Positions 2,533-56,399 of a stretch of DNA of 59,827 nt are shown here, one piece after another. This DNA comes from an uncultured bacterium (GTDB lineage: Bacteria; Hydrothermota; UBA3072; B12-G15). Under the pieces are notes generated by a model. That model saw nothing but the letters and a program-made list of their open reading frames with translations. It did no database searches and was not told the origin of the DNA. Where the stretch lies: contig CAZQRW010000004.1 in assembly GCA_964596115.1 (NCBI GenBank), forward strand, positions 4,500 through 64,326, written 5' to 3'. The position numbers were made by a program, and so were the translations under genes. Positions within the stretch are counted from its first letter, which is position 1, and every line of letters starts with the position of its first letter.

Positions 2533-2538
2533 TATTTT

Positions 2539-4211: not shown

Positions 4212-4318
4212 AATTTTAATTATTTTTATACTTTTTTCCGATGGCTTTTTAATACTTCAAATTAAACCTACGAAAACAGCCCTTAGATATAATGATTTAG
4301 ATTACTGAACAAAATCCC

Positions 4319-4346
4319 TTGACATAATTTTTTTCAGAAATACACT
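4319..4346 (+). promoter_or_regulatory. Promoter TTGACA-N16-TACACT
   Basis: Hexamers upstream of the antiporter pseudogene. Confidence 0.55.
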
Positions 4347-4500
4347 CACAATGACAATATAATTAAATTAAATGTAAGGCTGACGGATCAATTTCCAATT
4401 AATATTGAATAAGTGGGGGAAGCTCCACTATTTTTAGAACGTAGTGAACAAAATAGGGAATGAAGAGAGGTAAGAATGTTAATTTTAAGTTTAAGCTAAA

Positions 4501-5522: not shown

Positions 5523-5532
5523 CTCTCATAAT

Positions 5533-5555
5533 AAAAAGAGGGCAAAATGCCCCCC
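5533..5555 (-). terminator. Intrinsic terminator of the envelope operon
   Basis: Minus strand GGGGGCA-TTT-TGCCCTC followed by TTTTT, just after the stop at 5559. Confidence 0.75.
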
Positions 5556-5558
5556 AGA

Positions 5559-6737: not shown

Positions 6738-6746
6738 ATACCCTCC

Positions 6747-8575: not shown

Positions 8576-8576
8576 A

Positions 8577-9737: not shown

Positions 9738-9746
9738 TCTCTCCCC

Positions 9747-10874: not shown

Positions 10875-10939
10875 ACCCTCACCTCCTAAGGTTTTCGAGC
10901 AAAACAATGCAATTAATGTTTACAGTTAACTTGTATTTA

Positions 10940-11773
10940 TTAATCAACTATAACCAATACCCGGCACTGCTGAAGAAAATTAAGGTTTTCACTATACTGA
11001 TGAATCTTCATCGCATCATTGGGGGAAATAATAATATCCGTCTTATTAGTGCCTGTTACACCAATCCCTTTTATAATAAGTGGGTTAGGCTTCACCCTTT
11101 CATCCTGTCTTGCCTGATTAAAATTCTTGGCATAGCCAACAATACCCATCTTAATGGCATAATCGTGTGAAACAAATCCTGTTCCATAGACCTCCACTCC
11201 ATCTGGTGTCAATATCTTTGGTGCCATTGCAGGTTGCACTTTAAGTCCCCTTGCATCTATAATGAGTCCTGTATATATCCCTCCTTGTTGCGGTTGGATT
11301 ATTGGATTCATCCCTCCCATCTCGGGTGGAAGCAGTGTTGCTGTCATATCCCCAGTAATTGGAACTTCAACATCGACCTCTATGGATCCATCAGACATAT
11401 ACCTAATATCTGTTACGGTAAAATTTCTAATTATACCCTGTATTCTAGTACTTATAACATCTGAGGCAGTCATAGCATTCTCAACCGTAGTTTGAGCATC
11501 TATATAAACCCCTTTTATGATTTCCAGTACGTTTCTAAATGCATCAAGTTTCGCAGCTCTTATAGCACCTGGCCTTTGCGCAGCCACAGGAAGATCAGGG
11601 TTGGGCGCACCTATTCCAGTTACTACTATAATCCCCTTTGTCCAATCAATACCACCATACTCAGTCTTTTGGATGAAATCATAGTTTACAAGGATATTAC
11701 TATTTTGAGTTTCGGTTTGAGCAAATAACATTATACTCCCCAATAAAATAAAACTTATCTTCTTTATACCCAT
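10940..11773 (-). CDS. Secreted LPP20-like domain protein
   Basis: IDWTKGIIVVTGIG, AIRAAKLDAFRNVLE, YTGLIIDARG...PAMAPKI. Start at 11773 (AAGGAGGTG SD). No lipobox Cys. Confidence 0.8.
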   Translation of the reverse strand: MGIKKISFILLGSIMLFAQTETQNSNILVNYDFIQKTEYGGIDWTKGIIVVTGIGAPNPDLPVAAQRPGAIRAAKLDAFRNVLEIIKGVYIDAQTTVENAMTASDVISTRIQGIIRNFTVTDIRYMSDGSIEVDVEVPITGDMTATLLPPEMGGMNPIIQPQQGGIYTGLIIDARGLKVQPAMAPKILTPDGVEVYGTGFVSHDYAIKMGIVGYAKNFNQARQDERVKPNPLIIKGIGVTGTNKTDIIISPNDAMKIHQYSENLNFLQQCRVLVIVD

Positions 11774-11817
11774 AAAGCACCTCCTTTTAAGATTTAACTC
11801 GATCAAAACCTAAAAAA

Positions 11818-11845
11818 ATTATACCTTTTGAGTTAGTACTGTCAA
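11818..11845 (-). promoter_or_regulatory. Perfect-consensus promoter TTGACA-N16-TATAAT of the envelope operon
   Basis: Both hexamers are exact consensus. Confidence 0.8.
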
Positions 11846-11994
11846 GGAAAAAATCCTTCGTTGAAAAAGCAGACTGAATCTTTGATTAGATTCAAATGTA
11901 TTTGATTTTGACAAACATCTCTATATATAGGAATTCTAACTATTAATGTTATCAAGGGAAATCCACTCTCTTTAAATATTAATAAAACTATAAT

Positions 11995-13122
11995 TCAGGG
12001 AACAGGAAAAACCCTCGTAAGCCTCCCCAATTCATCGTATTCATATTTTAATTTATAATAAAATTCTTTGCTGTCTTCATTCTTTGAATATCCTTCTTCT
12101 AAAATAACATTTCCCCAGGTAAGAAAATCAAGGTAAAACCTATCCTTTAAAAATGACCGAAATTTCTCTGTCTCTACGTTTTTTTTGGGCATTTGTGCAT
12201 AAGTAAATTTGAGATATCCCTCGACTCTGTCGTTCTCTCCTATTATTTTTTGTTCTGTTAACCTTCCTTCACTGTCATATCTATATTTTTTGGAATTCTT
12301 GTATTTCCCGTTAATAAAAATTTTCTCTTCCATTATATTTCCCTGTCCATCATAGGAAAATTTATAGAGAATTATAACTGGTTTTCCTTCGACGGTTTGA
12401 CTTATGTCCTGTCTTTCAATTTCTTTCTTTCCATCGTACGAATGGACTATCTTAGAAATAATACGTCCATCATTAAGATATGTGGCTTCATTTATAAGTC
12501 TCTCCTCCTCATCGTAACCAAAAATAGAATATGTATTTAAGTATAAATCTTTCAATCCTCTAAAAAACACCTCCTGCTTTATGGGTTTACCCCTGTCATT
12601 ATATGTATAAATATTTTTTCTTTCTTCAGTGCCATCAAGATCAAAAATAGCACTCTCAAGTAAATTGCCTTCCCCATCAAAAGAATAATTTATTGTTACA
12701 AAGGCATTAAATGGAATAAACGTATGTTTATCCTCTACTACCCATCCCATTTTATCGAATTTTCTAATCCATTCCTCTAAATATCTTCCATTTAACAGGG
12801 ATTTATGGAGTATACTTCCCTCATTGTCAAAAAAAAGGTAGTGGGCAAGTGTCTCTTCTGAAAAAATATCCCCCTTAGATATGTCTCTATATATATAGAC
12901 TTCCTCTTTTGCCTCACTCCCTCCCATCCTGCTCAAAACCGATAATCCCTTCTGAAAGGTCTCTTCACCTTCGGCATCAAATCCCTTAATTTTTAAAAGT
13001 TCATCTTTCTCAGATAGATAAAGTTTATATATCTTGGTATACTTTTTGAATTCGCCTACTATCGAATCCAATTTTTCATCGATTCTTTCTGTATATTTAG
13101 TTGTTACTTTTGAAACAATCAT
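11995..13122 (-). CDS. Hypothetical protein with YD/RHS-like repeats
   Basis: Recurrent YxYD/N-xxG-R/N units (YSFDGEGNL, YTYNDRGKP, FSYDGQGNI, YRYDSEGRL, YEYDELGRL); AGGAG SD. Confidence 0.75.
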   Translation of the reverse strand: MIVSKVTTKYTERIDEKLDSIVGEFKKYTKIYKLYLSEKDELLKIKGFDAEGEETFQKGLSVLSRMGGSEAKEEVYIYRDISKGDIFSEETLAHYLFFDNEGSILHKSLLNGRYLEEWIRKFDKMGWVVEDKHTFIPFNAFVTINYSFDGEGNLLESAIFDLDGTEERKNIYTYNDRGKPIKQEVFFRGLKDLYLNTYSIFGYDEEERLINEATYLNDGRIISKIVHSYDGKKEIERQDISQTVEGKPVIILYKFSYDGQGNIMEEKIFINGKYKNSKKYRYDSEGRLTEQKIIGENDRVEGYLKFTYAQMPKKNVETEKFRSFLKDRFYLDFLTWGNVILEEGYSKNEDSKEFYYKLKYEYDELGRLTRVFPVP

Positions 13123-16032: not shown

Positions 16033-18468
16033 ATGACAATTTTAATTGTGCTTTTAATGTCTCAGATCCCTCAAAATATATTAAAGGCTGTCTCACAGAA
16101 ATCTATTCCAGCCATCTCTCAAAAACAACAAACATATAGAACTTTTCCGGAAAGTCTTATATTGAAGATGCAAACACAGCCTTCTGAGATTGAAAAGATG
16201 TATAACAATTACGGTCTTGCAATCAAAGGGATAAAGATGGAATCTTTATTTATTGATTCATTAGCAAATATAAGAAAATATGTAGGTAAAAAAGAAAAAC
16301 CTTCAGAGTATTTAAAAACCCTTGAACTTGCCGGTTTAAAAGCAGACACTATCAAAGGAATAATTTTTAAGACAAGGGTTGAAACACTAAACATCGGATT
16401 AAAGCAATTTGGTTATAACTTATTTAATATTTTATTCCCCAGAACTATTTCTATTCCTACTGTTGCGCCTACCGACAACTATATTCTGGGCCCTGGAGAT
16501 GAAGTCGATATAAATATCTGGGGTAATATGGAAAATAACCTAAATCCTATTGTGGACAACAGTGGAAATATTTTTGTAAGTGGATATGGTAATATTTTGG
16601 TGGGAGGAAAGACCTTTAAAGAGGCAAGAAAGACTATAATCAATAAGCTCAAAACAAAATTTGCTAATATTTATGTAGGTGTCTCTCTCGGAAGACTAAG
16701 AATGATAACCATCCATCTTGTTGGAGAGTTCTATCTACCAGGCAATTATACTATCTCTCCAAATAGTTCTATCCTTTATGCCTTATTCCAGGGGGGAGGA
16801 CCTAACAAAAACGGGTCTCTAAGAAATATAAAAATAATATCGCGCTCAAAAAAAACCCGGATAATCGACCTCTACCAACTAATGGTAAGCGGTAAATCGC
16901 TTCCACCTATTCAGTTTAATGACGGTGATATTATTTTCGTACCACCTATCGGGAAAACTGCTGCTATCGGTGGGGCTGTTAAAAGGCCTGGGATATATGA
17001 ACTAAAACCAAACGATAATATGAAATTACTCCTCAAGATGTCTGGCGGAGTGTTGCCAACCGCATATACAAAAAGGATTGAAATTGAAAGGGTAAAGGGG
17101 CACAAAACGAAGGTTGTCTATGATGAAAATTTTACTTCTTATGAGGATTTTGTGAAACAAGAGAATTTGATAAGAATCCAGGATGGTGATCTCATTATGA
17201 TATACCCTGTTAACAAAATAAGAAAGGGATACGTTTCCGTTTCGGGCAATGTAATGTATCCTGGGGAATATAAACTTGATAAGAATGTGCACTTATTTTC
17301 TCTTTTAAAAAAGGCAGGTATAAAGAGGGGAACATATATGGAAAGAGGTGAAATTTTAAGATATCTCACAGACTCTACAAGAAAAATAATAGGATTCCCT
17401 CTGCAGAAAATACTGAGCGATTCAACCCTTGATACATTTAAACTTGCCGAATGGGATAGCATTGTTTTATTTCCTAAAGACATTGTAAAATCAAGAGAAT
17501 TTGTAAATATCTATGGCGCAGTAAATAACCCTGGCACATATACACTTACCCCTGGACTTACCCTGGGTGACCTTCTCTTTACGGCAGTCCCTCAAGCAGG
17601 CGCCAACCTTCAGAATTGCGAATTGATTAGAAAAAAGGGAGAAAAGTTTGTTATTAAAAAAGTTGATCTCACAAAAGATCAAAATCTGAAGATCCCTTTA
17701 AAATTCAGAGATAACCTTATAATAAAAGGGGAAGCACTGTTCCCAAGAAATGTTGTTATCACAGGAGAGATCAAGTTTCCTGGACAATACATTTTGCGTA
17801 CGAACGAAACCCTGAAGTCTTTAATTGAGAGGGCTGGAGGATTACTCGAAGATGCATATATTGAAGGTATTGTTCTTACGAGGAAGACTGTAAAGGAATT
17901 ACAGGGTGAAGCAATGCAGGATCTCCTCACCAATGCAAGAAAAAGCGTATTAAATCAGCAGTCAATACTGCTCTCAGAACGGGGTACCGCTGCCGAATTA
18001 CAATCAAAACAGAGCATTTTAAACCAACAATTACAATTAATTCAATCATTAAGTACAGAAAACGTAACAGGTAGGGTGGCTATTCCATTTAGACAATTAA
18101 AAAACCTGAATATTACGCTTGAAGATGGGGATTCTTTATACATTCCTAAAATACCTTCTACTGTTCAGGTTATTGGGGCAGTATACAATCCGGCTGGTTT
18201 TATCTTCAACGAGAAACTAAAGGTAAGAGATTACATTGATCTTGCCGGAGGATTGATGCCAGATGCAAATAGAAAAGCGATATATGTTAGAAGGGCATCA
18301 GGAATTTCGGTAAAAAGGCCTCGAAAATTAAAAAGAGGGGATACGGTAATCGTTCCTAGAAAAACAAGTGCCCCCAGGTCATTGATGGACACGATAAAAG
18401 ACCTTGCATTAATTGCCTACGAGATGGGTGTAGCAATAGCATCTTTAAACACCCTTCTTAAAAAATAA
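16033..18468 (+). CDS. Polysaccharide export protein with multiple SLBB domains (Wza/KpsD-like)
   Basis: YILGPGDEV.INIWG (Poly_export) and repeated V.GEV..PG.Y SLBB units. Confidence 0.9.
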   Translation: MTILIVLLMSQIPQNILKAVSQKSIPAISQKQQTYRTFPESLILKMQTQPSEIEKMYNNYGLAIKGIKMESLFIDSLANIRKYVGKKEKPSEYLKTLELAGLKADTIKGIIFKTRVETLNIGLKQFGYNLFNILFPRTISIPTVAPTDNYILGPGDEVDINIWGNMENNLNPIVDNSGNIFVSGYGNILVGGKTFKEARKTIINKLKTKFANIYVGVSLGRLRMITIHLVGEFYLPGNYTISPNSSILYALFQGGGPNKNGSLRNIKIISRSKKTRIIDLYQLMVSGKSLPPIQFNDGDIIFVPPIGKTAAIGGAVKRPGIYELKPNDNMKLLLKMSGGVLPTAYTKRIEIERVKGHKTKVVYDENFTSYEDFVKQENLIRIQDGDLIMIYPVNKIRKGYVSVSGNVMYPGEYKLDKNVHLFSLLKKAGIKRGTYMERGEILRYLTDSTRKIIGFPLQKILSDSTLDTFKLAEWDSIVLFPKDIVKSREFVNIYGAVNNPGTYTLTPGLTLGDLLFTAVPQAGANLQNCELIRKKGEKFVIKKVDLTKDQNLKIPLKFRDNLIIKGEALFPRNVVITGEIKFPGQYILRTNETLKSLIERAGGLLEDAYIEGIVLTRKTVKELQGEAMQDLLTNARKSVLNQQSILLSERGTAAELQSKQSILNQQLQLIQSLSTENVTGRVAIPFRQLKNLNITLEDGDSLYIPKIPSTVQVIGAVYNPAGFIFNEKLKVRDYIDLAGGLMPDANRKAIYVRRASGISVKRPRKLKRGDTVIVPRKTSAPRSLMDTIKDLALIAYEMGVAIASLNTLLKK

Positions 18469-19455
18469 GACCTTACCATTTTCTACTAGGGATTTATCTG
18501 CCATCTCAAGCGTTTTAACTACCTTTAAACCTGCATATCCATCTGAGGCTGGTTTGCTTCTCGTTTTAATGCACTCCAAAAAATGTTCTATTTCTATTTT
18601 TAATGGTTCCCTATTATCAATCTTGGGAGAACGGATATCACCAACCCTGTAAGTCAGAAGAAACTCACCATAATCATACGGTTCCTTTAAATCAACCCCT
18701 GAATCATAAACCTTGACCTTCTCTCTGGGATCAATGTCATTATAGACAATCATTTTCTTAGAGCCGACTATTATAGTCCTTCTTATCTTTGATGGTGCAA
18801 GCCAACTAACCTGGATATCAGAAATCACTCCATCCTCAAATATCGTGTGAATAAATGCAACATCAGGAATCCCGTTAAGTACAGCATCCTTTCCAACTGC
18901 TGAAACATACTTTGGTTTTGAATCAATCCAGGAAAATATTACTGAAAAATCATGTGGTGCAAGATCCCAGATGACATTTGCATCCCTTCTATGTATGCCC
19001 AGGTTAACCCTCGTGGATGTTATGTAGTATACCTCTCCAATCTCCCCACTGTCAATTATATCTTTTATTTTTATGACGGCTGGATTAAACACAAAGGTAT
19101 GCCCGACCATCAAAATTCTCTTCCCCTCTTCTGAGAGGCTTATGAGCTCTTCTGCCTCTTTCACAGAGGCAGTCATTGGCTTTTCTACAAATACATCGAT
19201 GCCATTCTCTAAAAAGATTTTTGCCAGTTTATAATGAGACTTTAGTGGCGTAGAAATAAGCACCCCATCAACCTTATCTTTATTTAATAAATCCCTATAA
19301 TCTTTTGTGTATTTAGCATTGGGGAATTTTCCCTTTATTAAATTCAGTCTCTTAACATTACTGTCGCAGCCTATTACATCTGTTTTGGGGATACTGAGAA
19401 GATTTCTCAATAAGTTTGGCCCCCAATATCCCAATCCAATGACTCCAAGTTTCAT
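18445..19455 (-). CDS. Gfo/Idh/MocA oxidoreductase (WbpB/WlbA-like nucleotide-sugar 3-dehydrogenase)
   Basis: GVIGLGYWG; VFVEKP; WDLAPHD. Confidence 0.9.
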   Translation of the reverse strand: MKLGVIGLGYWGPNLLRNLLSIPKTDVIGCDSNVKRLNLIKGKFPNAKYTKDYRDLLNKDKVDGVLISTPLKSHYKLAKIFLENGIDVFVEKPMTASVKEAEELISLSEEGKRILMVGHTFVFNPAVIKIKDIIDSGEIGEVYYITSTRVNLGIHRRDANVIWDLAPHDFSVIFSWIDSKPKYVSAVGKDAVLNGIPDVAFIHTIFEDGVISDIQVSWLAPSKIRRTIIVGSKKMIVYNDIDPREKVKVYDSGVDLKEPYDYGEFLLTYRVGDIRSPKIDNREPLKIEIEHFLECIKTRSKPASDGYAGLKVVKTLEMADKSLVENGKVLFFKKGV

Positions 19456-20606
19456 ATCCCCTCCGTAGAAAAGAATTCTTTTATTTTATCCACTATATAA
19501 CGTATCTCTTCTTGAGTTAAAAATGGATGCATTGGCAATGATATCACCTCCTCTGCTACCATCTCAGTAGTAGGAAGAGAACCCTTGATGCCATTTAAAG
19601 GAGTCTGAAGGTGACAGGGGACAGGGTAATGAATTCCCACCCCTATCCCGTTTTTTCTGAGATAATCAAATAGGTCGTTTCTCTTCTTTGATCTTACAAC
19701 ATAAAGATGATAAACATGCTTAACACTCTCCATCTCAAACGGAACGATGATAGGAGTATCCTTCAGCAAATCATTATATAAAAACGCAATTTTTCTTCGC
19801 TTCTCATTCCATTCGTCAAGGAATTTTAACTTTGCTCTTAGCACTGCTGCTTGAATCTCATCCAATCTTGAATTAAAACCAAACATCGTATAATGATACT
19901 TATCAATCTGTCCATGCTCTCTGAGTTTTCTCACGATATCTGCATATTCTTCATTATTGGTAGTAACACCACCTGCCTCTCCAACAGCTCCAAGATTCTT
20001 CGAAAAGTAAAAGCTGAATCCAGCAATATCCCCTAATGAACCAGCTTTCTTACCTTTATATTCTGCACCATGTGCCTGGGATGCATCTTCAATCACCTTT
20101 AGATTATACATATCACCTAACTTTAATATTGAATCCATATCTGCAGGTTGCCCATAAAGATGAACGGGGAGTATTGCTGCTACCCTTTTCCTGTCCCTTT
20201 TATCAATTAGACTCTCACCATCAAATTCACAACTTTTATCTATAAACTCCTCTACACTTGCTGGGTTTATATTATAAGTTTTTTCATCAATATCCACGAG
20301 AATTGGTTCACAACCTGCATGTAGGATTGCCTCAATAGTTGCAAAAAAAGTATGGGAAACAGTTATTATTTTTTCTCCCTGCTTGATACCTGCAGCCCTT
20401 ATAGCAAAATGGATTGCATCGGTGCCGCTGCCAACGCCTATGGCATATTTGGCACCCAGATATTTGGAAAATTCTCCTTCAAACTTTTGGACATTTGGGC
20501 CAAGATATAGATACATTGAATCCAGTATTTCTTTCCACGAATTCTGAACATCTTTTTCAATCTTTTTAAACTGTGCCTTAAGGTCAACCAAAGGAATGTT
20601 TTTCAT
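19452..20606 (-). CDS. DegT/DnrJ/EryC1/StrS aminotransferase (WbpE/FdtB-like)
   Basis: PLVDLKAQ; PVHLYGQPAD; IEDASQAHG; FSFYFSKNLG; NSRLDEIQAA. Confidence 0.93.
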   Translation of the reverse strand: MKNIPLVDLKAQFKKIEKDVQNSWKEILDSMYLYLGPNVQKFEGEFSKYLGAKYAIGVGSGTDAIHFAIRAAGIKQGEKIITVSHTFFATIEAILHAGCEPILVDIDEKTYNINPASVEEFIDKSCEFDGESLIDKRDRKRVAAILPVHLYGQPADMDSILKLGDMYNLKVIEDASQAHGAEYKGKKAGSLGDIAGFSFYFSKNLGAVGEAGGVTTNNEEYADIVRKLREHGQIDKYHYTMFGFNSRLDEIQAAVLRAKLKFLDEWNEKRRKIAFLYNDLLKDTPIIVPFEMESVKHVYHLYVVRSKKRNDLFDYLRKNGIGVGIHYPVPCHLQTPLNGIKGSLPTTEMVAEEVISLPMHPFLTQEEIRYIVDKIKEFFSTEGI

Positions 20607-22530: not shown

Positions 22531-23778
22531 TCAAGGTATCTCCCTAAATTTTGTATAATCCCATAGGACCTCAGGTATCCTTATACTTCCATCCTTCTTT
22601 TGGAAATTCTCAATGATACCAACAAAAGTCCTGGGAGTCGCAATTCCAGAGCCATTGAGGGTATGAACGAATTCAAGTTTATTGCCATCTCTGTATTTTA
22701 TGTTTGCTCTTCTGGCCTGGAAATCCTCAAAGTTACTAACTGAAGATACCTCTAACCATCTTTTTAAGCCTGGCGCCCAAACTTCAATGTCATAGGTTTT
22801 AGCAGATGCGAAAGAAATATCATCATAGCTTAGAAGCACAATTCTGTATGGCAAATTAAGAAGTTTTAATACGTCTTCAGCATCTTCTAAAAGTAACTCA
22901 AGTTCGTTATATGATTTCTCTGGCAGTGCAAATTTTACTAACTCAACTTTGTTAAACTGGTGAACCCTCATTAAGCCTTTTGTGTCCCTTCCATAGGAGC
23001 CCGCTTCTCTTCTGAAACAGGCTGTATAAGCAGTATATTTCACAGGTAATTCATCCCTCTTAAGTACATCATTGTTATGAATATTAGTAAGTGGAACTTC
23101 CGCTGTTGGATTCAAATATAAATTATCTTTTTCAACTAAATACATATCTTCTTTCATTTTAGGGAGTTGCCCCGTGCCAAACATACTCTCTTCCTTTGCA
23201 AGAAATGGAGGAAATATTTCTACATAGTTATGTTTTGAAGTATGTAGGTCAAGCATAAAATTTATTAATGCCCTTTCAAGCCTCGCACCTTTATCCCTAT
23301 ATAAAGGAAAATGTGTGCCTGCAATTTTTGCACCTGTCTTCATATCAAGTATTTTGTGCACTTCAGAGAGAAATAGATGATCCTTTGGTTCAAAATCAAA
23401 TTTTGGAATGTTGCCCCCCTCTCGTATTATCTTTTGCTTATTGGGAACAGAGGAGTGGGGTATATTAGGTATCCATTTTAGTATTTCTTTTAATTCTTTC
23501 TCTATTGCTTCAAGCTCCAGTTCATCATCTGCCATTTCTTTATTAATTCTCTGCATCTCGGAAATTATAGTATCAGCATTACTGCCTTCCTTTTTTAACA
23601 TAGATATCTCTTTTCCCTTAACATTCTTCTTATGTCTTAGATCTTCAACTCTCTTTATAAGTTCCCTTCTCTTCTCATCTTTTTTCAAGACATCATCTAT
23701 ATTTATCTTAACACCTTTTTTCCTCAATGCATCCTTTACAATTTCAGCATTATCTCTGATAAATTTAATATTGAACAT
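22531..23778 (-). CDS. serS: Serine--tRNA ligase
   Basis: PTAEVPL; CFRREAGSYGRDTKGLMRVHQF; EVSSVSN; HTLNGSGIA. Start at 23778 (AAGGAG SD). Confidence 0.97.
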   Translation of the reverse strand: MFNIKFIRDNAEIVKDALRKKGVKINIDDVLKKDEKRRELIKRVEDLRHKKNVKGKEISMLKKEGSNADTIISEMQRINKEMADDELELEAIEKELKEILKWIPNIPHSSVPNKQKIIREGGNIPKFDFEPKDHLFLSEVHKILDMKTGAKIAGTHFPLYRDKGARLERALINFMLDLHTSKHNYVEIFPPFLAKEESMFGTGQLPKMKEDMYLVEKDNLYLNPTAEVPLTNIHNNDVLKRDELPVKYTAYTACFRREAGSYGRDTKGLMRVHQFNKVELVKFALPEKSYNELELLLEDAEDVLKLLNLPYRIVLLSYDDISFASAKTYDIEVWAPGLKRWLEVSSVSNFEDFQARRANIKYRDGNKLEFVHTLNGSGIATPRTFVGIIENFQKKDGSIRIPEVLWDYTKFREIP

Positions 23779-23843
23779 TCTTCTCTCCTTAAAATTTGAG
23801 GTTTTTTGCCTTTGGGGACAATCCATCCTGCTTATTTGCGATT

Positions 23844-26243: not shown

Positions 26244-26807
26244 ATGGAAATAAAAGAAGCAATATTTCGTTTCTATGAAGAACTAAATGATTTTCTGCCC
26301 ATAGAGAAGAAAAAAATCTCCTTCTCCTACTCTTTCAATGGGAGTATCAAAATAAAGGATGCCATATCATCCCTTGGTGTTCCCTGCTCAATGGTAGATC
26401 TCATTCTTGTAAATGGAAAATCTGTTGATTTTTCCTATCATCTTAAGAATAAAGACAGGATTTCGGTATATCCCGTTTTTGAAACACTGGACATATCAGA
26501 TGTTACACATTTAAAAAATAGACCATTGCGTAAATCAAAATTCATCGTGGATATGCATCTTGTAGGATTGGAAAGACAACTCTCCAGGCTTGGCTTCAAC
26601 ATTATCCATAAACATTCTGAAAGGGAAATTGTTAATACCTCTTTAGTTGAAAAACGGATTATCTTAACCAAAGACAAAAAAATATTGAAATATAAAAATG
26701 TTACCCGCTGCTACCTTGTCAAATCAAATAGTCCAGAAAAACAATTAAAGGAAGTTCTCCATAATTTCAGCCTTTATAAAAAAATTCAAGCAAATGAAAG
26801 TCCCTAA
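26244..26807 (+). CDS. Mut7-C ubiquitin-like + PIN RNase domain protein, apparently C-terminally truncated
   Basis: FRFYEELNDFLP; SLGVP..VDLILVNG; KFIVDMHL; RIILTKD. The usual Cys zinc ribbon is absent. Confidence 0.82.
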   Translation: MEIKEAIFRFYEELNDFLPIEKKKISFSYSFNGSIKIKDAISSLGVPCSMVDLILVNGKSVDFSYHLKNKDRISVYPVFETLDISDVTHLKNRPLRKSKFIVDMHLVGLERQLSRLGFNIIHKHSEREIVNTSLVEKRIILTKDKKILKYKNVTRCYLVKSNSPEKQLKEVLHNFSLYKKIQANESP

Positions 26808-26808
26808 C

Positions 26809-26833
26809 AAAAAGGGGGGGCGAAGCCCCCCTT
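26809..26833 (-). terminator. Intrinsic terminator of the buk-ptb-fabH-por operon (possibly bidirectional)
   Basis: Minus strand GGGGGGC-TTC-GCCCCCCC followed by TTTTT, between convergent genes. Confidence 0.85.
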
Positions 26834-26851
26834 AAAAAATCCAAAAAATTT

Positions 26852-27736
26852 TTATTTATTCTCGATCTTTTTCATCAATAACTCCCATTCCCAATCCACA
26901 CTCTTCTGAACATATTTAACATCTTCTTCTGTAAGATGTCTAAATCTACCCTGTAATTTCAGGTATTCAATAACAGGAACAGGTTTTTTTACCTTCATTG
27001 TGAGCTTCCAATCAATTCCCTTCTCTATTTCAAGAAGAGGAAAAATCCTTGTTTGAACAGCAAGCCTCGAAAGTTTTATAGTATCCTCTGGCCTTGTTTT
27101 CCAACCCGGTGGGCAGGGAGAAAGGATTAATATAAATTTCGTTCCCTTTATGTCCTTTGCCTTCTGAAATTTTTTCACAAAGTCTTCTGGATATGCAACG
27201 GTTACAGTGGCAATATAGGGGATTCTATGTGCAGCAAAAATGGCAACGAGGTCCTTTTTGGGCCTATCCTTGGGGTGCTTAACAGGGGTTGTTGTTGTCC
27301 ATGCGCCCCAGGGCGTTGCAGAACTTCTCTGAATCCCTGTATTCATATATGCTTCATTGTCGTAGCAAACGTATAGTATATCATCGTTTCTTTCAGCGGC
27401 ACCAGACAATGCCTGTATACCTATATCGTATGTTCCCCCATCACCTGCCCAAGCCACTACATTCACATCTTTCTTTCCCAAAATATCATATCCTGCCCTT
27501 ACACCGGATGCTACAGATGCTGCAGTCTCAAATGCAGTGTGATAAAGAGGAACACCTACTGCAGAATGTGGAAAGGGTCCATCGATCACCGACCAGCAGC
27601 AGGCTGGAATATCAAGGCTCGTATTCCTTCCCAATGCCTTTAACGCGTATCTCATTGCAATAGAGGCACCACATCCAGGACAGGCAAGGTGACCAGATTG
27701 CAATACTTCTTCCTGTGGTATCGTTGTTCTTATCAT
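26852..27736 (-). CDS. porB: 2-oxoacid:ferredoxin oxidoreductase beta subunit (TPP-binding)
   Basis: GHLACPGCG; AGDGGTYDIG...DNEAYMNTG; SPCPPGW. Confidence 0.93.
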   Translation of the reverse strand: MIRTTIPQEEVLQSGHLACPGCGASIAMRYALKALGRNTSLDIPACCWSVIDGPFPHSAVGVPLYHTAFETAASVASGVRAGYDILGKKDVNVVAWAGDGGTYDIGIQALSGAAERNDDILYVCYDNEAYMNTGIQRSSATPWGAWTTTTPVKHPKDRPKKDLVAIFAAHRIPYIATVTVAYPEDFVKKFQKAKDIKGTKFILILSPCPPGWKTRPEDTIKLSRLAVQTRIFPLLEIEKGIDWKLTMKVKKPVPVIEYLKLQGRFRHLTEEDVKYVQKSVDWEWELLMKKIENK

Positions 27737-28887
27737 ATTCTCACCCCCTTAAATATTATATCGGAACGGGGACTATCCATTTTATCAACATCTTCTACCA
27801 TCTGAATAATGTCTCTGACACCAACATCTCTCCCACCAAGGCCAGTAACTATACCAAATATCGGAGGCCTATTTGAGACATTATACATCGCAGCCTTTAC
27901 TTCCTGATAAAAAATCCCACTTGCCCCGAAGGATATATTCCTATCAATTACCATAGCCTTTTTAACAGAGCTTACTATTTCTCTTACCCTTTCTACGGGG
28001 AAAGGTCTAAAAACCCTGATCCTTAAGATACCTATTTTCATCCCTCTCTCCCTTAACCTGTCAACGGCAACCCTTGCAGTACTGGCTATCGTTGCGCTGG
28101 AGATAATAAGAAAATCTGCATCGTCAGCCTTATATGTTTCAACCAGCCCATATTCTCTTCCAAACATCTCTCCAAATTCTTTACCAGTTTTTTCCCACTC
28201 AGATTTTGCCTGTTCCATTGCGTCCTGCATTATATACCTCAGTTCAAAATAACCATCTGGTCCTGTAAGCCCACCAAAGGCATGAGGATCTTCAGGATCC
28301 AGTTTATATTCAGGCTTAAATGGTGGAAGGTAAGTATCTACCATTTCCTGTTCGGGCATATCTACAACTTCCATTGTATGGGAAAGAACAAAGGCATCAA
28401 GTATAACCATCGTTGGAAGCAAAATTCTTTCAGAAACCTTGTATGCCTGAATAACAGAATCAAGAACCTCCTGGTTATTCTGACAGTAAACCTGCATCCA
28501 TCCTGTATCCCTCTCAGAGAGAGAATCATTCTGATCTGTCCAGATTGTCCAGGGAGGTGTCATTGCCCTATTGATATTAGCCATAACAACGGGTGTCCTT
28601 GCACCTGATGCCCAGTGTAACATCTCATGCATCAGTGCAAGTCCCTGAGCAGAGGTTGCTGTAAATGCCCTCGCTCCTGTCATAGAAGCACCTATACAGG
28701 CAGCCATTGCAGAATGCTCTGATTCTACCTTTATAAATTTTGCATCAAGTTTTTTTTCTGCACATATCTCAGATAATAATTCTACGACCTGTGTCTGGGG
28801 AGTAATTGGGTATGCAGCAATTACCTGAACCCTTGAAAGTGTAGCACCCCAGGAAACTGCGTGATTCCCCATCAAAACCTGTCTCAT
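27733..28887 (-). CDS. porA: 2-oxoacid:ferredoxin oxidoreductase alpha subunit
   Basis: AYPITPQT; ESEHSAM; TATSAQGL. Confidence 0.93.
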   Translation of the reverse strand: MRQVLMGNHAVSWGATLSRVQVIAAYPITPQTQVVELLSEICAEKKLDAKFIKVESEHSAMAACIGASMTGARAFTATSAQGLALMHEMLHWASGARTPVVMANINRAMTPPWTIWTDQNDSLSERDTGWMQVYCQNNQEVLDSVIQAYKVSERILLPTMVILDAFVLSHTMEVVDMPEQEMVDTYLPPFKPEYKLDPEDPHAFGGLTGPDGYFELRYIMQDAMEQAKSEWEKTGKEFGEMFGREYGLVETYKADDADFLIISSATIASTARVAVDRLRERGMKIGILRIRVFRPFPVERVREIVSSVKKAMVIDRNISFGASGIFYQEVKAAMYNVSNRPPIFGIVTGLGGRDVGVRDIIQMVEDVDKMDSPRSDIIFKGVRI

Positions 28888-29207
28888 TTCTCCTCCTCTT
28901 CTATATCAATGGCATCTACAGGACATTCATTCCAGCATATTCCGCATCCCTTACAATAATCGTAATTTATAACTGGATTTGGCTTTTCTTTCCCGTCTAT
29001 CACTATCGGCTCAAGGGTAATCGCAGGCTCAGGACAATACTTCCAGCAGATCATACAGTATATACATTTATCATAATTAATCACTGGCTTCAAATTTCTC
29101 CACGTGCCTGTCTTATTATAAGACATATCATAGAGAGAAACAGGCATTACTGGCATCTCTTTAACCGATTTAAAGATTACCTTCTTATCAGGCTGCTTTT
29201 TCTCCAT
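28884..29207 (-). CDS. porD: 2-oxoacid:ferredoxin oxidoreductase delta subunit (2x[4Fe-4S])
   Basis: CIYCMICWKYCP and CKGCGICWNECP; ATG at 29207 after AGGAGG. Confidence 0.93.
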   Translation of the reverse strand: MEKKQPDKKVIFKSVKEMPVMPVSLYDMSYNKTGTWRNLKPVINYDKCIYCMICWKYCPEPAITLEPIVIDGKEKPNPVINYDYCKGCGICWNECPVDAIDIEEEEK

Positions 29208-29761
29208 CAATCGCCTCCTTTTGTCTTTTCATAGGCCTCTCTTGCAGCAGCTACATTTTCCTCTTTTTTTACAGGGGCCTGCTCCCTTACGGCCTCTTCA
29301 AGGGATTTAAGGGAACAAACTTTTAGAACCTTCACAACAGCCCCTAAGATAGCGGTATTTACAATTGGGGCTGTTTTTGAACCAAGCCTGTGGTTCACAG
29401 CAATAGATGTTGCGTCAATAGTTACTATTCTATAATTACCCTTAATAGGAACATTTTTCGGTTCCCTCTCTGTATTGATTATAACCCATCCACCTTCCTT
29501 CAAACCGTCTGTGACATTTACGGCATTCAGTAAGGTAGGGTCAAGAACAACGATGTGATCAGGTTCATATATCTTCGATTTTTCGTATATCTGATCATCG
29601 TTAATCCTTATAAATGCAGCGACAGGTGCCCCTCTTCTCTCAACTCCAAATTCAGGAAATGCCTGCACATACTTCCCTTCTTTGGCAACAGCCACAGCAA
29701 GAATTTTAGACGCAACAACAGAACCCTGGCCACCTCTACCATGAAACCTAATTTCTTCCAT
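29207..29761 (-). CDS. porC: 2-oxoacid:ferredoxin oxidoreductase gamma subunit
   Basis: EIRFHGRGGQG; FGVERRGAPV; IVNTAILGA. Confidence 0.93.
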   Translation of the reverse strand: MEEIRFHGRGGQGSVVASKILAVAVAKEGKYVQAFPEFGVERRGAPVAAFIRINDDQIYEKSKIYEPDHIVVLDPTLLNAVNVTDGLKEGGWVIINTEREPKNVPIKGNYRIVTIDATSIAVNHRLGSKTAPIVNTAILGAVVKVLKVCSLKSLEEAVREQAPVKKEENVAAAREAYEKTKGGD

Positions 29762-29773
29762 AACTCCTCCTTT

Positions 29774-30754
29774 TTACCATTTCAGTACCGCGGCACCCCA
29801 GGTAAATCCACCGCCAAATGCATCAAAAAGAACAATATCTCCCTTTTTAACCTTACCATTTCTTACAGCTTCATCAAGGGCTATAGGAATAGTCGCTGCT
29901 GAAACATTTGCAGTATGGTCAATTGTAATAAATGTATTTTCTTTTGGAATGCCAGCTCTTTCTCGCGTTGCCTCAATTATTCTTAAATTTGCTTGATGAG
30001 GAATGAAAATGTCAACATCCTTTCCCTCTATACCAGCTTTTTTTAATGCCTCTACGGCTGCCATTTGCATAGAACGAACTGCACTCTTAAAGACTTCATT
30101 ACCTGCCATAAATACCGTATGAAGCTTTTTTTCCACAGTTTCTTTTGAAGCTGGCATTCTTGACCCTCCTGCAGGTTGAACAAGTAAGTCCCCAAGATTC
30201 CCATCAGCACCCCAATATGTTGAAAGAATTCCTGAATCATCCTCACTTTCTTCCAACACTGCGCACCCAGCACCGTCACCAAAGAGGACACAGGTAGAAC
30301 GGTCTTCCCAATTTACTGCCCTCGACATCGTCTCTCCACCACAAAGAAGAATCCTTCTTACATTTTTGGATTCTATAAGGCCCTTCGAAATCACAAGTCC
30401 GTATAACCATCCAGAACAACCAGCCTCCATATCAAATGCGGCCTGTCCCTTTGTATTCAAGTGTTTTTGCACCCAGCAAGCAGTGGATGGATAGGCATTA
30501 TCTGGTGTATCGGTAGCCACGATAATGGCATCTATATCTTCAATACTTTTCTCAGCCATTTCCAAGGCATTTATTGCTGCCTTTGCTACCATATCGCTTG
30601 TTGCTTCGTTATCGGCAGCTATGTGCCTTTCAACTATTCCTGTCCTCGTTCTAATCCATTCATCACTTGTATCCACTATTTTCTCAAGATCAAAGTTCGT
30701 TAAGATCTTTTCAGGAAGATACGAACCAATTCCAGTTATTCTTACCCTTTTCAT
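29774..30754 (-). CDS. fabH: Beta-ketoacyl-ACP synthase III
   Basis: DTSDEWIRTRTGI; AGCSG (catalytic Cys); PHQAN; ANVSAATIP; AFGGGFTWG. Confidence 0.95.
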   Translation of the reverse strand: MKRVRITGIGSYLPEKILTNFDLEKIVDTSDEWIRTRTGIVERHIAADNEATSDMVAKAAINALEMAEKSIEDIDAIIVATDTPDNAYPSTACWVQKHLNTKGQAAFDMEAGCSGWLYGLVISKGLIESKNVRRILLCGGETMSRAVNWEDRSTCVLFGDGAGCAVLEESEDDSGILSTYWGADGNLGDLLVQPAGGSRMPASKETVEKKLHTVFMAGNEVFKSAVRSMQMAAVEALKKAGIEGKDVDIFIPHQANLRIIEATRERAGIPKENTFITIDHTANVSAATIPIALDEAVRNGKVKKGDIVLFDAFGGGFTWGAAVLKW

Positions 30755-31665
30755 TTCTTACCTGCCATAACTGCGGCTAATGCTATTGAATAGAATTTTG
30801 ACTCTTCGCTGTCAGCCCTTGAAGTTAAGACACAAGGTACTGTTGCTCCTGTAACCATTGCAGCAAGACGACCATGCGCAAATTTTGTTATAGATTTAAA
30901 AAATACATTACTCGCCTCAATATTTGGAAACACAAGGATATCTGCATCCCCACCAACAGGGCTTTTTAATCCCTTTATTTCGCAGGCTTCTTTTGAAACC
31001 GCTACATCAAGGGCAAGTGGACCGTCTACAATAGCCCCCCTTAACTGTTTTCTATCAGCCATCTTTGCTATGATGGCTGCATCTATTGTCGCCTCCATTC
31101 TATTACTAACCTTTTCTGTTGCAGCAACAATAGCAGCCTTCGGATTATCAATTCCAAACTTATGTGCAACATCTATTGCATAATTTAACATTGTGATCTT
31201 TTGTTTAAGATCTGGCTTAGGGATTACAGCAACATCTGTTACAAAAAGTAATTTTGGATATGCAGAGGTTTCCATAATTGCAATATGGCTCAAGATCTTT
31301 CCAGGGGGAAGCAGCCCATGCTCCTTATCCAGGATAAGTTTCATATAAACATCTGTAGGAAGGAGACCCTTCATAAGCACCTCGGCTTCACCCTTCTTTA
31401 CCAGATCTCTGGCAACCCTTCCTGCTTCTACTGGTTCTTTAATATCAATAATCTCAAATATTGATGAATCAATCCCCTTTTCTTTAGACAGTTCTATTAT
31501 CTTATCCCTATCACCGACAAGTTTTGCGTGGACAAGACCTTCCTTTACTCCCCTGTGAACTGCCTCTATCGTATGAGGATCCTGACCATTTGCAACAGAA
31601 AGTGTCATAGTCTCTCTGCCTTTAACATGCTCAACAAGTTGATTTAGTGTCCTAATTGGTTCCAT
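30751..31665 (-). CDS. ptb: Phosphate butyryltransferase (branched/short-chain phosphate acyltransferase)
   Basis: LMKG; TDVAVIP; DGPLALDVA; GDADILVFPNIE; LTSRADS. Confidence 0.92.
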   Translation of the reverse strand: MEPIRTLNQLVEHVKGRETMTLSVANGQDPHTIEAVHRGVKEGLVHAKLVGDRDKIIELSKEKGIDSSIFEIIDIKEPVEAGRVARDLVKKGEAEVLMKGLLPTDVYMKLILDKEHGLLPPGKILSHIAIMETSAYPKLLFVTDVAVIPKPDLKQKITMLNYAIDVAHKFGIDNPKAAIVAATEKVSNRMEATIDAAIIAKMADRKQLRGAIVDGPLALDVAVSKEACEIKGLKSPVGGDADILVFPNIEASNVFFKSITKFAHGRLAAMVTGATVPCVLTSRADSEESKFYSIALAAVMAGKK

Positions 31666-31676
31666 TTTCTTTCCTC

Positions 31677-32744
31677 CTAATATTCTTTTGGTTTTTCTTC
31701 ATTTTTTAATACCCTTAACGCTCCAAATGCAAGGGCTTCCATTTCATCTTCTCCCGGACAAACGATTACCTTTGATATATATTCAACCTTCCTCTTTATC
31801 TCATCAACAAGGTATTTATAATGAGCAAGCCCACCCGTAAGAATAATAGCGTCCACCCTACCCTCGAGAACTGCTCCCAACCCTCCAATTTCCTTGGATA
31901 TTTGATATACCATTCCATCAACTATTTTTTTCGCCTCCCCATCACCATCATCAATTCTACTTGCAACCTCCTTCATATCGCTAGTGCCAAGGTAAGCAAC
32001 AACACCACCCTTACCAGCACACAGCTTTTTCAGCTCGTCTTTTGAATATTTACCTGAGAGTGTCAGTTCTATTGTATCCCATACGGGTAAACCACCAGCT
32101 CTTTCTGGGGCAAAAGGGCCATCCCCATTAAGCGCATTATTTACGTCTACTACTTTTCCCCTCCTATGGGCTGCAACAGAAACTCCACCACCCAAATGGG
32201 CTATTATAAAATTCATATCCTCATAACTTTTATTAAAATATTCTTTCGCTATTTTTCTTCCCACTGCTTTGTGATTTAGGGCATGAAAGATACTACGCCT
32301 TGTGATCACTGGTAACCCTGAGAGTTTTGCAAGCTCATCCATCTCGTCCACAACCACAGGATCGACTATGAAGGATGGAATACCAAGGGGATGAGCAATC
32401 TCATATGCAATAATTCCTCCCAGGTTTGAGGCATGTTCACCCTGAAGCCCTTGTTCCAAATCCCGCAACATTTGCTCATTTACAGTGTACGTTCCGCTGG
32501 CAATGGGACGTAAGAGTCCACCCCTCCCCACTACTGCTGAAAGTCTACTTATGTCAAATTTTTTTTCTTTTAATAACTTCAAAATTATGTCTTTTCTAAC
32601 ATCTTTCTGGTCAACTATTCTATGAAACTGAGAGATTTGCTCTGTAGAATGGGGAATATTCTGAACAAAAATCTTTTTTGTATCGGAAAACCAACCGATT
32701 TTGGTAGAGGTAGAGCCAGGATTCACAACAAGTATTTCAAACAT
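31677..32744 (-). CDS. buk: Butyrate kinase
   Basis: NPGSTSTK; VGRGGLL; HASNLG; FHALN; HLGGG; PGEDEMEAL. Confidence 0.95.
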   Translation of the reverse strand: MFEILVVNPGSTSTKIGWFSDTKKIFVQNIPHSTEQISQFHRIVDQKDVRKDIILKLLKEKKFDISRLSAVVGRGGLLRPIASGTYTVNEQMLRDLEQGLQGEHASNLGGIIAYEIAHPLGIPSFIVDPVVVDEMDELAKLSGLPVITRRSIFHALNHKAVGRKIAKEYFNKSYEDMNFIIAHLGGGVSVAAHRRGKVVDVNNALNGDGPFAPERAGGLPVWDTIELTLSGKYSKDELKKLCAGKGGVVAYLGTSDMKEVASRIDDGDGEAKKIVDGMVYQISKEIGGLGAVLEGRVDAIILTGGLAHYKYLVDEIKRKVEYISKVIVCPGEDEMEALAFGALRVLKNEEKPKEY

Positions 32745-32778
32745 TTTACCTCCTTTGTCTTTTCAATTTAATGCTATA

Positions 32779-32806
32779 ATCTTATTCGCATTTTTCAATT
32801 TGTCAA
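32779..32806 (-). promoter_or_regulatory. Promoter TTGACA-N16-TAAGAT for the buk operon
   Basis: Hexamers read directly; leader with GGAGG SD. Confidence 0.65.
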
Positions 32807-32944
32807 CAATTAGAGAATTTTTTCTCAAACTTTTGAGTAAATTTTTTGGGGGGGTAGAGCAACATTCCGGATTGAAAATCAGTGGAAAAACTGATAGAAA
32901 AGCCCTGAGAAAATTTAAATTATTTTAAGATTTTATTGGGTTAA

Positions 32945-33871
32945 TCATAGATTCCTGCCTGGAAAACTTTCATGGAAATACGGTCTCCATTCATTTGGAT
33001 GAGATGAATAAACGATTATTTTTATACCTTCTCTTCCTTCAATAATTATCTTACCCTTCTCCAGTCTAATATGGGATTCTGACAGGTCTACACCATAGTA
33101 TTTTTTCCTAAAAGAGTAGATGATAAGTTCTTTGGATGTTAAAATAAGAGAACAAGGTATATTTACTGTTCTTGCTCCCTTTTTAACTGAACAATAATCA
33201 TTCTCTTCCAATTTGATTGATTCTGCTGGAATAGAAAGTGGCTTTTTCCCACCCAAATTAAAAATTAAATAGACTACGAAAAAGGTAAAAAGAAAAATCC
33301 CGGCAAGGAGAAGTACAATAAAGTATGCCGGTTGCATCATCGAAAATGGTATTTTTATCTGATCCAGTTCGCCCTTCATTTTTTCTGCATCAACCTTCCT
33401 TTTTCCTATCTTTAGATTTATAAGAAATTTATCAATAATAGACTTATATTTATCCTCTGAAGAGGAAGTATAAAGGTCAAACCAGTAAACTGCACCCTCA
33501 AATGGAAATAATACCACAATGTAATATCCCTTTCCCAAATCACTCACTCCATAAATCCCTTTCTCACCAAGAAGATCTATATTCCACACTTTATATAAGC
33601 CCTTTATTTTTTCCGAATTTTCAAGATGTAAAAAGGAACCCTCTGGATTATTTGAACGCATATAAAGCACCCTAAATTTTGCATTTATTCCCTTAAACAC
33701 AATACCCTTCCATTCATCATTAGTAAACATAGTTTTTGATAATAAAGGATAATAGGATTCTATATCAAAATACCTGGTTTTCTTAAATCGGATAGGCTTG
33801 GAGACTAAATATGCTACTACTGCCAAAATAACAACATCTATTAAAAAAATTAGACCGAGGATCCTCTTCAT
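32945..33871 (-). CDS. Hypothetical membrane protein (two predicted TM helices)
   Basis: 308-aa ORF; ATG directly abuts the secA TAG; hydrophobic N-terminal and sub-terminal segments. Confidence 0.75.
   Translation of the reverse strand: MKRILGLIFLIDVVILAVVAYLVSKPIRFKKTRYFDIESYYPLLSKTMFTNDEWKGIVFKGINAKFRVLYMRSNNPEGSFLHLENSEKIKGLYKVWNIDLLGEKGIYGVSDLGKGYYIVVLFPFEGAVYWFDLYTSSSEDKYKSIIDKFLINLKIGKRKVDAEKMKGELDQIKIPFSMMQPAYFIVLLLAGIFLFTFFVVYLIFNLGGKKPLSIPAESIKLEENDYCSVKKGARTVNIPCSLILTSKELIIYSFRKKYYGVDLSESHIRLEKGKIIIEGREGIKIIVYSSHPNEWRPYFHESFPGRNL

Positions 33872-54168: not shown

Positions 54169-56398
<2,230 letters not shown>

Positions 56399-56399
<1 letters not shown>

Follow-up and report, generated by a model that had tools for sequence, protein, structure and literature searches.

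Anaerobic bacteria in sediments are widely traced by their iso- and anteiso-fatty acids, which serve as biomarkers. By textbook accounts, the branched primers of these acids come from branched-chain keto-acid dehydrogenase (BKD), a complex dependent on NAD and lipoamide. In Firmicutes, the BKD genes are accompanied by those for phosphate butyryltransferase (Ptb) and butyrate kinase (Buk), e.g., ptb-bcd-buk-lpdV-bkdAA-bkdAB-bkdB in Bacillus subtilis, ptb-buk-bkdDABC in Enterococcus faecalis, and buk/ptb beside bkd in Listeria, and in these operons Ptb and Buk drain the acyl-CoA pool for ATP. In archaea, the 2-oxoisovalerate:ferredoxin oxidoreductase (VOR), a member of the 2-oxoacid:ferredoxin oxidoreductases (OFORs), is part of peptide fermentation, and the lipids of archaea are not built on fatty acids. 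In Listeria, Buk and Ptb fill the acyl-CoA pool from external branched acids (PMC10026030). In C. thermocellum, deletion of the OFOR Pfor4 abolishes iso/anteiso (branched) fatty acids, and the authors of that work state that an OFOR role in branched primer supply had not been proposed earlier (PMC13011478, March 2026). This study concerns a seven-gene cluster, buk-ptb-fabH-porC-porD-porA-porB, which occupies the minus strand (32806-26815) of a 59,827-nt stretch of DNA, hereafter referred to as the window (contig CAZQRW010000004.1), from an uncultured bacterium assigned to the candidate phylum (candidate division) WOR-3.

It is considered fairly probable that FabH (beta-ketoacyl-ACP synthase III) is a hub supplied with branched acyl-CoA both by a VOR-type enzyme encoded by porCDAB and by reversible Ptb/Buk, and the role of the operon is most likely the supply of branched starter units for membrane lipids. 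The VOR-type enzyme would oxidatively decarboxylate 2-oxoisovalerate, 2-oxoisocaproate, and 2-oxo-3-methylvalerate (the 2-oxoacids derived from valine, leucine, and isoleucine), yielding isobutyryl-, isovaleryl-, and 2-methylbutyryl-CoA together with reduced ferredoxin, a step that would take the place of the NAD-dependent BKD complex of Bacillus. FabH would then join the branched acyl-CoAs to malonyl-ACP, starting iso- and anteiso-fatty acids. Ptb/Buk would act as a reversible valve on the shared acyl-CoA pool: outward, surplus acyl-CoA would be turned into ATP and branched short-chain acids; inward, an external branched acid would pass via acyl-phosphate to acyl-CoA primers, the direction of the flux being presumptive. 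As for gene order, buk-ptb-fabH corresponds to the salvage route, and variants of the type fabH-porCDAB in relatives match the de novo route. With fabH in the same probable transcription unit, the cluster makes a compact seven-gene set that could be expressed together, and in organisms that have not yet been cultured the operon would tie the make-up of the membrane to peptide fermentation and the yield of ATP. An interpretation of this kind had been put forward in a preliminary description of the window; it is supported here, each of its testable predictions having come out as expected.

Like the Firmicute bkd operons, the window cluster pairs Ptb/Buk with an enzyme that would turn branched 2-oxoacids into acyl-CoA, so that one pool would serve both FabH and ATP formation or salvage (PMC10026030). 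It differs from them in two ways: a four-subunit OFOR that depends on ferredoxin stands in the place of the lipoamide/NAD-dependent E1-E2-E3 complex, and fabH is itself a member of the operon, with translational coupling to ptb. No domains of E1 alpha/beta, E2 lipoamide acyltransferase, or E3 occur among the window open reading frames (ORFs) of at least 150 aa, and the 60-kb window holds no bkd gene, no other fab gene, and no second OFOR. Because E1/E2/E3 genes are missing from it, the cluster is not a bkd-type operon; it is a functional anaerobic counterpart of the bkd-ptb-buk operons, not a member of that family.

Several other systems share parts of this design. Pfor4 of C. thermocellum (Clo1313_1353-1356), also annotated as a ketoisovalerate ferredoxin oxidoreductase, is a four-subunit OFOR in the role of Bkd, as proposed for the window, the likeness noted here being one of role. 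Acid assimilation in C. thermocellum proceeds via Pta/Ack and AdhE, unlike the Ptb/Buk of the window, and fabH is mentioned nowhere in that paper (PMC13011478). Archaeal VORs (EC 1.2.7.7; Thermococcales, methanogens; models NF008818, NF006232, and NF007202) have the same alpha-beta-gamma-delta make-up as the window enzyme, which, unlike them, is bacterial and has a substrate-loop motif of its own. In Listeria (through Buk/Ptb) and in S. aureus (through MbcS), activation of external branched short-chain acids feeds FabH, with which the buk-ptb-fabH order fits; there, the activating genes do not share an operon with fabH, and BKD is the de novo source. The canonical plsX-fabH-fabD-fabG-acpP cluster contains the same FabH ortholog, but the window fabH lies between ptb and porC, away from fab genes. 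Full-text searching on fabH together with VOR, ptb/buk, or WOR-3 brought up no report of fabH as a member of such an operon, and the main text of a WOR-3 survey (PMC12542636) contains neither 'branched' nor 'butyrate'. The parts and the principle are already known, the concept itself having been published for Pfor4; what had no earlier description in the texts searched is the operon's architecture along with its spread across lineages. The operon and its variants, which occur in at least three candidate phyla, provide independent comparative-genomic evidence for a widespread OFOR route in uncultured anaerobes.

All seven ORFs lie on the minus strand in the order first reported (Table 1), and the stop/start overlaps reported at four junctions can be read in the sequence. 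Three of these are ATGA overlaps, namely, ptb/fabH, where the fabH start sits on the ptb stop, porD/porA, and porA/porB; the fourth, porC/porD, measures 1 nt with an ATG start or 4 nt with a TTG start. The remaining gaps do not exceed 12 nt (buk/ptb, 11 nt; fabH/porC, 12 nt), and both contain a GGAGG ribosome-binding site. This tight packing leaves no room inside the cluster for internal promoters or terminators, and the seven genes are probably co-transcribed. In line with the single terminator proposed earlier, the hairpin after porB is the sole minus-strand terminator-like site within 26500-33200; the span originally given (32806-26852) runs from the first base of the -35 hexamer to the porB stop, with the strong terminator just outside, at 26831-26815. 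Promoter-like matches across the region are no commoner than in shuffled sequence (20 versus 16.7), and for this reason the promoter call rests on position and conservation: all six full clusters, i.e., the window and five relatives, carry a sigma-70-like candidate promoter in the equivalent position 5' of buk, which in the relatives (L092, L083, L084, L086, and L173) takes the form of a TTGAC[AT]-15/16-TA..AT pair 35-50 nt upstream. The single promoter of the preliminary description is likewise borne out as a candidate.

Independent ENA and Logan contigs match the window sequence from mid-buk, where they begin, through porB, and the identical arrangement in two independent assemblies shows that the cluster is not an assembly artefact or chimera. 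The stretch is present in about 20 hydrothermal-vent and marine-sediment metagenome runs. The arrangement exceeds chance, because the gene order persists at 60-77% protein identity with unrelated flanks.

At the two ends of the operon, minor features were observed. A 10-nt exact direct repeat, AAATTGAAAA (minus-strand reading), has one copy over the spacer after the -35 hexamer and the other just 5' of the buk ribosome-binding site. It could be an operator or a chance repeat in AT-rich DNA; as an operator it was dropped, given that L092, the relative with 94% identity, keeps just the second of the two copies intact. Convergent to porB, a plus-strand gene for a protein with a Mut7-C ubiquitin fold and a Mut7-C RNase domain ends some 8 nt away from the hairpin of the terminator; both genes may make use of this hairpin.

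Table 1. Coordinates and gene content of the window cluster, its variants in relatives (L numbers), and neighbouring features
Source	Feature	Positions	Strand	Remarks
Window	putative sigma-70-like promoter, TTGACA-16 nt-TAAGAT	32779..32806	minus	10/12 consensus matches; about 35 nt 5' of buk start
Window	buk, butyrate kinase, 355 aa	31677..32744	minus	TIGR02707
Window	ptb, phosphate butyryltransferase-like phosphotransacylase, 304 aa	30751..31665	minus	Pfam PTA_PTB
Window	fabH, beta-ketoacyl-ACP synthase III, 326 aa	29774..30754	minus	TIGR00747
Window	porC/vorC, OFOR gamma subunit, 184 aa	29207..29761	minus	Pfam POR, TIGR02175
Window	porD/vorD, OFOR delta subunit, 107-108 aa	28884..29210	minus	Fer4; two [4Fe-4S] motifs
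Window	porA/vorA, OFOR alpha subunit, 384 aa	27733..28887	minus	POR_N and PFOR_II domains
Window	porB/vorB, OFOR beta subunit, thiamine diphosphate (TPP)-binding, 294 aa	26852..27736	minus	TPP_enzyme_C domain
Window	intrinsic terminator, GGGGGGCTTCGCCCCCC + T run	26806..26831	minus	7-bp all-G/C stem, 3-nt loop; 20 nt past porB stop
Window	AAATTGAAAA repeat copies	32760-32769, 32792-32801	minus	
Window	Mut7-C protein gene	26244-26807	plus	
Window	acetate kinase (437 aa), NfnA-like (278 aa), NfnB/GltD-like (465 aa)	54169-57712	minus	
Window	envelope/secretion-type gene run	5559-13122	minus	
Window	seryl-tRNA synthetase ORF	22531-23826		
L092	full buk-ptb-fabH-porCDAB			FabH identity 94%
L083	full buk-ptb-fabH-porCDAB			FabH identity 78%
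L084	full buk-ptb-fabH-porCDAB			FabH identity 71%
L084	second porCDAB	16822-19810		after yebC-ruvC-ruvA-ruvB
L086/L087	full buk-ptb-fabH-porCDAB			FabH identity 68%; NCBI WOR-3 metagenome-assembled genome (MAG)
L173	full buk-ptb-fabH-porCDAB			FabH identity 67%
L176	ptb-fabH-porCDAB without buk			
L175	fabH-porCDAB without ptb or buk	3742-9887		NCBI GCA_964525555.1
L088	ptb-fabH-porC-X-porA-porB	X, 10451-12118		X, GltD/NfnB-like NAD(P)-binding protein with PorD-like C-terminus
L089	X	10876-12543		
L094	fabH-porC-X-porA-porB without ptb	X, 2071-3813		
L096	fabH-porC-X-porA-porB without ptb	X, 3576-5285		
L172	ptb-fabH alone			Ptb 74% identical to that of the window
L001	fabH with porBADC convergent 4 kb away			Aminicenantes MAG
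L093	canonical plsX-fabH-fabD-fabG			
Four lineages	unlinked fabH copies			
L029	buk-ptb-ptb-rpsA(S1)-fabZ-fabH-fabD-fabG-acpP	5355-12896		uncultured Caldisericales MAG

By its domains and motifs, the enzyme encoded by porCDAB has what an OFOR requires, i.e., four separate subunits with TPP and three [4Fe-4S] sites. The alpha subunit carries a YPITP motif at residues 26-30; the beta subunit has the GDG...N thiamine-diphosphate motif at 98-132 together with Cys19, 22, 46/47, and 208; the delta subunit shows CxxCxxCxxxCP at residues 49 and 86; and the gamma subunit matches Pfam POR with 143 bits. Scores against VOR models are above those against Pyrococcus-type pyruvate:ferredoxin oxidoreductase (POR or PFOR) models for alpha, beta, and delta. 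With 415.7 bits, the beta subunit is above the cutoff of NF008818 (405), the model for 3-methyl-2-oxobutanoate dehydrogenase subunit beta, and it falls under that of the PorB model NF008819 (380 bits; cutoff 405). The best NCBIfam model of the delta subunit is VOR delta NF007202 (113.9 bits, cutoff 166; PorD_Arch, 95.2 bits, cutoff 120), and the alpha subunit reaches 480 bits with VOR alpha NF006232 (cutoff 646) versus 423 bits with the Pyrococcus-type POR alpha, so that alpha and delta stay under the equivalog cutoffs of the VOR models. None of the POR equivalog models PorB, PorD_Arch, and PorA_Arch is passed by the window enzyme. Beta subunits pass NF008818 in L084 and L088 as well, with a similar score pattern. 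On the L084 contig, the cluster copy is VOR-like; another porCDAB, 3 kb further downstream, exceeds the cutoffs of PorB (420 versus 405) and PorD_Arch (120.7 versus 120), and its alpha subunit favours the POR model over the VOR model, the reverse of the cluster copy.

Neighbour-joining trees were built from the FabH-linked OFORs, the L084 paralog, and PDB sequences of PFOR and oxalate oxidoreductase; for comparison with the curated VOR families, NCBIfam score contrasts were used. All FabH-linked OFORs form one clade, with alpha subunits 58-94% identical to that of the window, as compared with 41% for the L084 paralog, 44% for M. acetivorans PFOR (PDB 9BT4), and 36% for oxalate oxidoreductase. 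Thr31, Arg114, and Ile123 of D. africanus PFOR, which we take to contact pyruvate, align to Thr29, Arg107, and Ile115 of the window alpha. A clade-specific substrate loop, NRAMTPPWTIWTDQ, spans window alpha residues 106-119; it reads NRA[ML]xP[PG]W[TS][IV]WT[DE]Q in the clade versus NR..SAPINI..DH in both PORs compared, i.e., W-[TS]-[IV] where the PORs carry I-N-I. The substrate pocket thus appears to be systematically different from that of PORs, a larger size not being readable from the sequence. With moderate confidence, the window enzyme is regarded as VOR-like, as the preliminary description had supposed, and it probably prefers branched-chain 2-oxoacids over pyruvate.

Three points weigh against this assignment: the gamma subunit passes only the joint pyruvate/2-ketoisovalerate model TIGR02175 PorC_KorC (218 bits; cutoff 81), which does not split POR from VOR; the single best hidden Markov model (HMM) of the alpha subunit is archaeal PorA (PorA_Arch, 493 bits, cutoff 550, versus 480 for VOR alpha); and alpha and delta are under every equivalog cutoff. 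As the alpha, delta, and gamma models do not decide, the VOR call rests on the beta subunit, the score differences, and the paralog contrast. Enzymes classed as VOR often keep some pyruvate activity. Together with the top HMM of alpha and with the M. acetivorans PFOR as the closest solved structure, this would suit an operon in which a POR makes acetyl-CoA, FabH builds straight-chain lipids, and Ptb/Buk form a Pta/Ack-like ATP branch. Such an operon is very unlikely here, since beta fails the PorB cutoff and passes that for VOR beta, a distinct POR-like paralog coexists on L084, and the substrate loop is unlike those of both PORs compared; moreover, the kinase is a butyrate kinase at equivalog level, and a separate acetate kinase gene (ackA) elsewhere in the window indicates that Buk/Ptb are not the acetate branch.

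The buk product scores 532 bits with the butyrate kinase equivalog model TIGR02707 (cutoff 289) and matches Thermotoga maritima butyrate kinase 2 over its full length (PDB 1SAZ/1X9J, 408 bits). For the ptb product, the Pfam PTA_PTB score is 156 bits, and the top NCBIfam models are those for phosphate butyryltransferase, which it reaches below cutoff (NF004472, 337 versus 399; TIGR02706, 326 versus 410). Among solved structures, the nearest are those of Ptb enzymes and not of Pta (phosphate butyryltransferase PDB 7VG9, 261 bits), and further matches include Listeria Lmo1369 (159 bits) and the branched-chain phosphotransacylase of E. faecalis (148 bits). The product is best described as a putative, divergent Ptb-like phosphotransacylase. 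As a separate observation, the window ackA is followed by genes for NfnA-like (DHODB Fe-S) and NfnB/GltD-like proteins, and it is possible that this candidate ackA-nfnAB unit ties the acetate branch to NADPH/ferredoxin balancing.

The order buk-ptb-fabH also tracks a mainly inward, salvage or anabolic pathway, in which Buk/Ptb activate branched short-chain acids from the sediment, FabH uses them as primers, and the VOR, driven by reduced ferredoxin, runs in reverse as a reductive carboxylase for the synthesis of branched-chain amino acids, a direction proposed for rumen bacteria. A ptb-fabH pair without VOR (L172) and a buk-ptb-ptb set beside a fab cluster in Caldisericales are in keeping with it, Listeria runs Buk/Ptb in the activating direction (PMC10026030), and the reverse reaction of EC 1.2.7.7 has been discussed for Prevotella (PMC7709123). 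It is nevertheless unlikely: fabH-porCDAB without ptb or buk (L175, L096) is hard to fit with acid entry via Buk/Ptb, the window holds no evidence on amino-acid auxotrophy, and the proposal overlaps with the hub model, which already allows reversibility.

The window FabH scores 426 bits with TIGR00747 (cutoff 292). Its Cys113, His253, and Asn283 align with the catalytic Cys112, His244, and Asn274 of E. coli FabH and are invariant in 27 relatives, and Trp32, Arg36, Arg151, and Arg249 of the E. coli enzyme are all kept. It is 63% identical to the FabH of the plsX-fabH-fabD-fabG cluster in L093 and 51% identical to that of fabZ-fabH-fabD-fabG-acpP in L029. On model score and orthology, it is the ordinary initiator, orthologous to housekeeping FabH. 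KAS III-like enzymes have been recruited elsewhere, and BioZ, PqsD, and DarB are among the weaker matches, which would be in line with another condensation product (polyketide-like or acyl-CoA-extending) and no fatty-acid initiation. The score far over the FabH cutoff and far under those of the specialised models, the conservation of the four E. coli residues, and the orthology to FabH in fab clusters make this extremely improbable.

B. subtilis FabHA takes branched primers and E. coli FabH is acetyl-CoA-specific, and it weighs against the proposed scheme that the window FabH matches both about equally (scores for Aquifex, B. subtilis FabHA, and E. coli FabH lie within 20 bits), that Xanthomonas FabH, 61% identical to the E. 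coli enzyme, nonetheless takes branched primers, and that four lineages have the orthologous fabH unlinked and one has it in a canonical fab cluster, so that FabH, as a general initiator, may also accept acetyl-CoA. Because overall similarity does not predict it and no validated sequence rule is known, primer preference cannot be read from the sequence, and similarity to solved structures was rejected as a guide on account of the near-equal scores and the Xanthomonas counterexample. Relative to E. coli FabH, the pocket has changed at F87 (Y88), L142 (M143), and L191 (Q193), and the beta8-alpha9 region has about seven extra residues. This loop was found to govern specificity in the FabH family in a 2025 study (PMC12625853), and the differences are suggestive only. 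A preference of the window FabH for branched acyl-CoA primers is presumed.

The relatives analysed are a sample, not a census: a FabH-profile search of genome contigs listed mostly ordinary fabH loci at 45-62% identity, which were used as background. Uncultured bacteria are the source of every FabH homologue at 60-80% identity, and the named ones are labelled WOR-3, Cloacimonas sp. 4484_209, Aminicenantes/Aminicenantia, or Acidobacteriota. Of the 17 lineages sampled in which FabH is at least 57% identical, 10 have an OFOR next to fabH; at the about 150 fabH loci at 45-57% identity among the matches listed, there is none. The synteny expected at the outset was found, the full cluster being present in five further lineages (Table 1), with flanks that bear no relation to one another when the window, L083, and the L084/L086/L173 group are compared. 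Of all the partners, FabH is the most constant and the one gene common to all variants, and the feeder, either VOR or Ptb(/Buk), can occur singly. In L029, Buk/Ptb and FabH appear to have become associated independently in another phylum.

If the VOR, Ptb, and Buk were an ATP-making module of amino-acid fermentation, fabH might be a housekeeping gene that landed there, uncoupled and unselective. Its orthology to the general initiator (the 63% identical copy in plsX-fabH-fabD-fabG) and the unlinked copies in four related lineages agree with this. After at least five distinct rearrangements, however, a neutral gene would hardly still lie beside VOR or Ptb; the start/stop overlap with ptb persists in lineages only 60-70% identical, and fabH is shared by all variants, all of which renders a mere passenger quite unlikely. 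Beyond the hub role, the FabH and VOR clade could be a dedicated primer module that has spread vertically and horizontally across WOR-3, Cloacimonadota-like, and Aminicenantes-like lineages, in some with delta fused to an NAD(P)H-oxidoreductase module, with FabH as sole initiator and membranes built almost entirely from amino-acid-derived branched primers. This extension, in which the VOR might even hand over acyl-CoA to FabH directly, is doubtful; if it were true, the flux of peptide fermentation and the redox state of ferredoxin would directly determine the lipid composition.

In three lineages, the small delta subunit is replaced by the GltD/NfnB-like protein X of 555-580 aa (in L088, NF009410 with 520 bits). 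The C-terminus of X matches PorD_Arch in L088 and a 4Fe-4S domain in L096; that of L094 gave no PorD or Fer4 match. This suggests that the X-containing enzymes are 2-oxoacid:NAD(P)+ oxidoreductases rather than ferredoxin-reducing ones, and these variants point to an unstudied family of such oxidoreductases. In L175, a 654-aa Acs-like AMP-forming (acetyl-CoA-synthetase-like) ligase is encoded divergently upstream of fabH-porCDAB; it may be an MbcS-like alternative for short-chain acid activation, and in the place of buk-ptb it parallels S. aureus MbcS. A yebC-ruvCAB block lies downstream of the cluster in L084, L086, L173, and L175, a downstream synteny of that sublineage in which the window has no part. 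A shared neighbour gene was considered and rejected: the unannotated fabH neighbours in L172 and L002 are homologous neither to each other nor to the 308-aa ORF upstream of the window operon.

Most WOR-3 MAGs in a survey of 181 genomes encode fabD, fabH, fabF, fabG, and fabZ (PMC12542636 supplement), so that a type II fatty-acid synthesis pathway exists to be fed by FabH. A point against the proposed role comes from the same supplement, where about 17 of the 44 WOR-3 MAG columns covered carry these five fab genes without accA, accB, accC, and accD. With no acetyl-CoA carboxylase subunits, the malonyl donor is uncertain in part of the phylum.

The operon is surrounded by housekeeping genes (secA, purA, dnaE, ftsK, serS, and cell-envelope genes), and the SecA, PurA, SerRS, and DnaE of the window group in 90%-identity clusters whose members at NCBI bear the name candidate division WOR-3 bacterium. 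Rfam and tRNA scans of the window gave no match, and a tandem-repeat scan yielded a single low-scoring two-copy repeat, inside porB. The envelope/secretion-type gene run, with weak or no family matches, encodes an unknown protein of 392 aa, a CsgG-like protein with TPR, a FecR-domain protein, a FlgT_N-like protein, a TPR and SLH protein, an unknown protein of 288 aa, and an RHS-repeat protein. The seryl-tRNA synthetase ORF measures 431 aa from its first ATG versus 415 aa in relatives of the 90% cluster, and its true start is probably 16 codons downstream.

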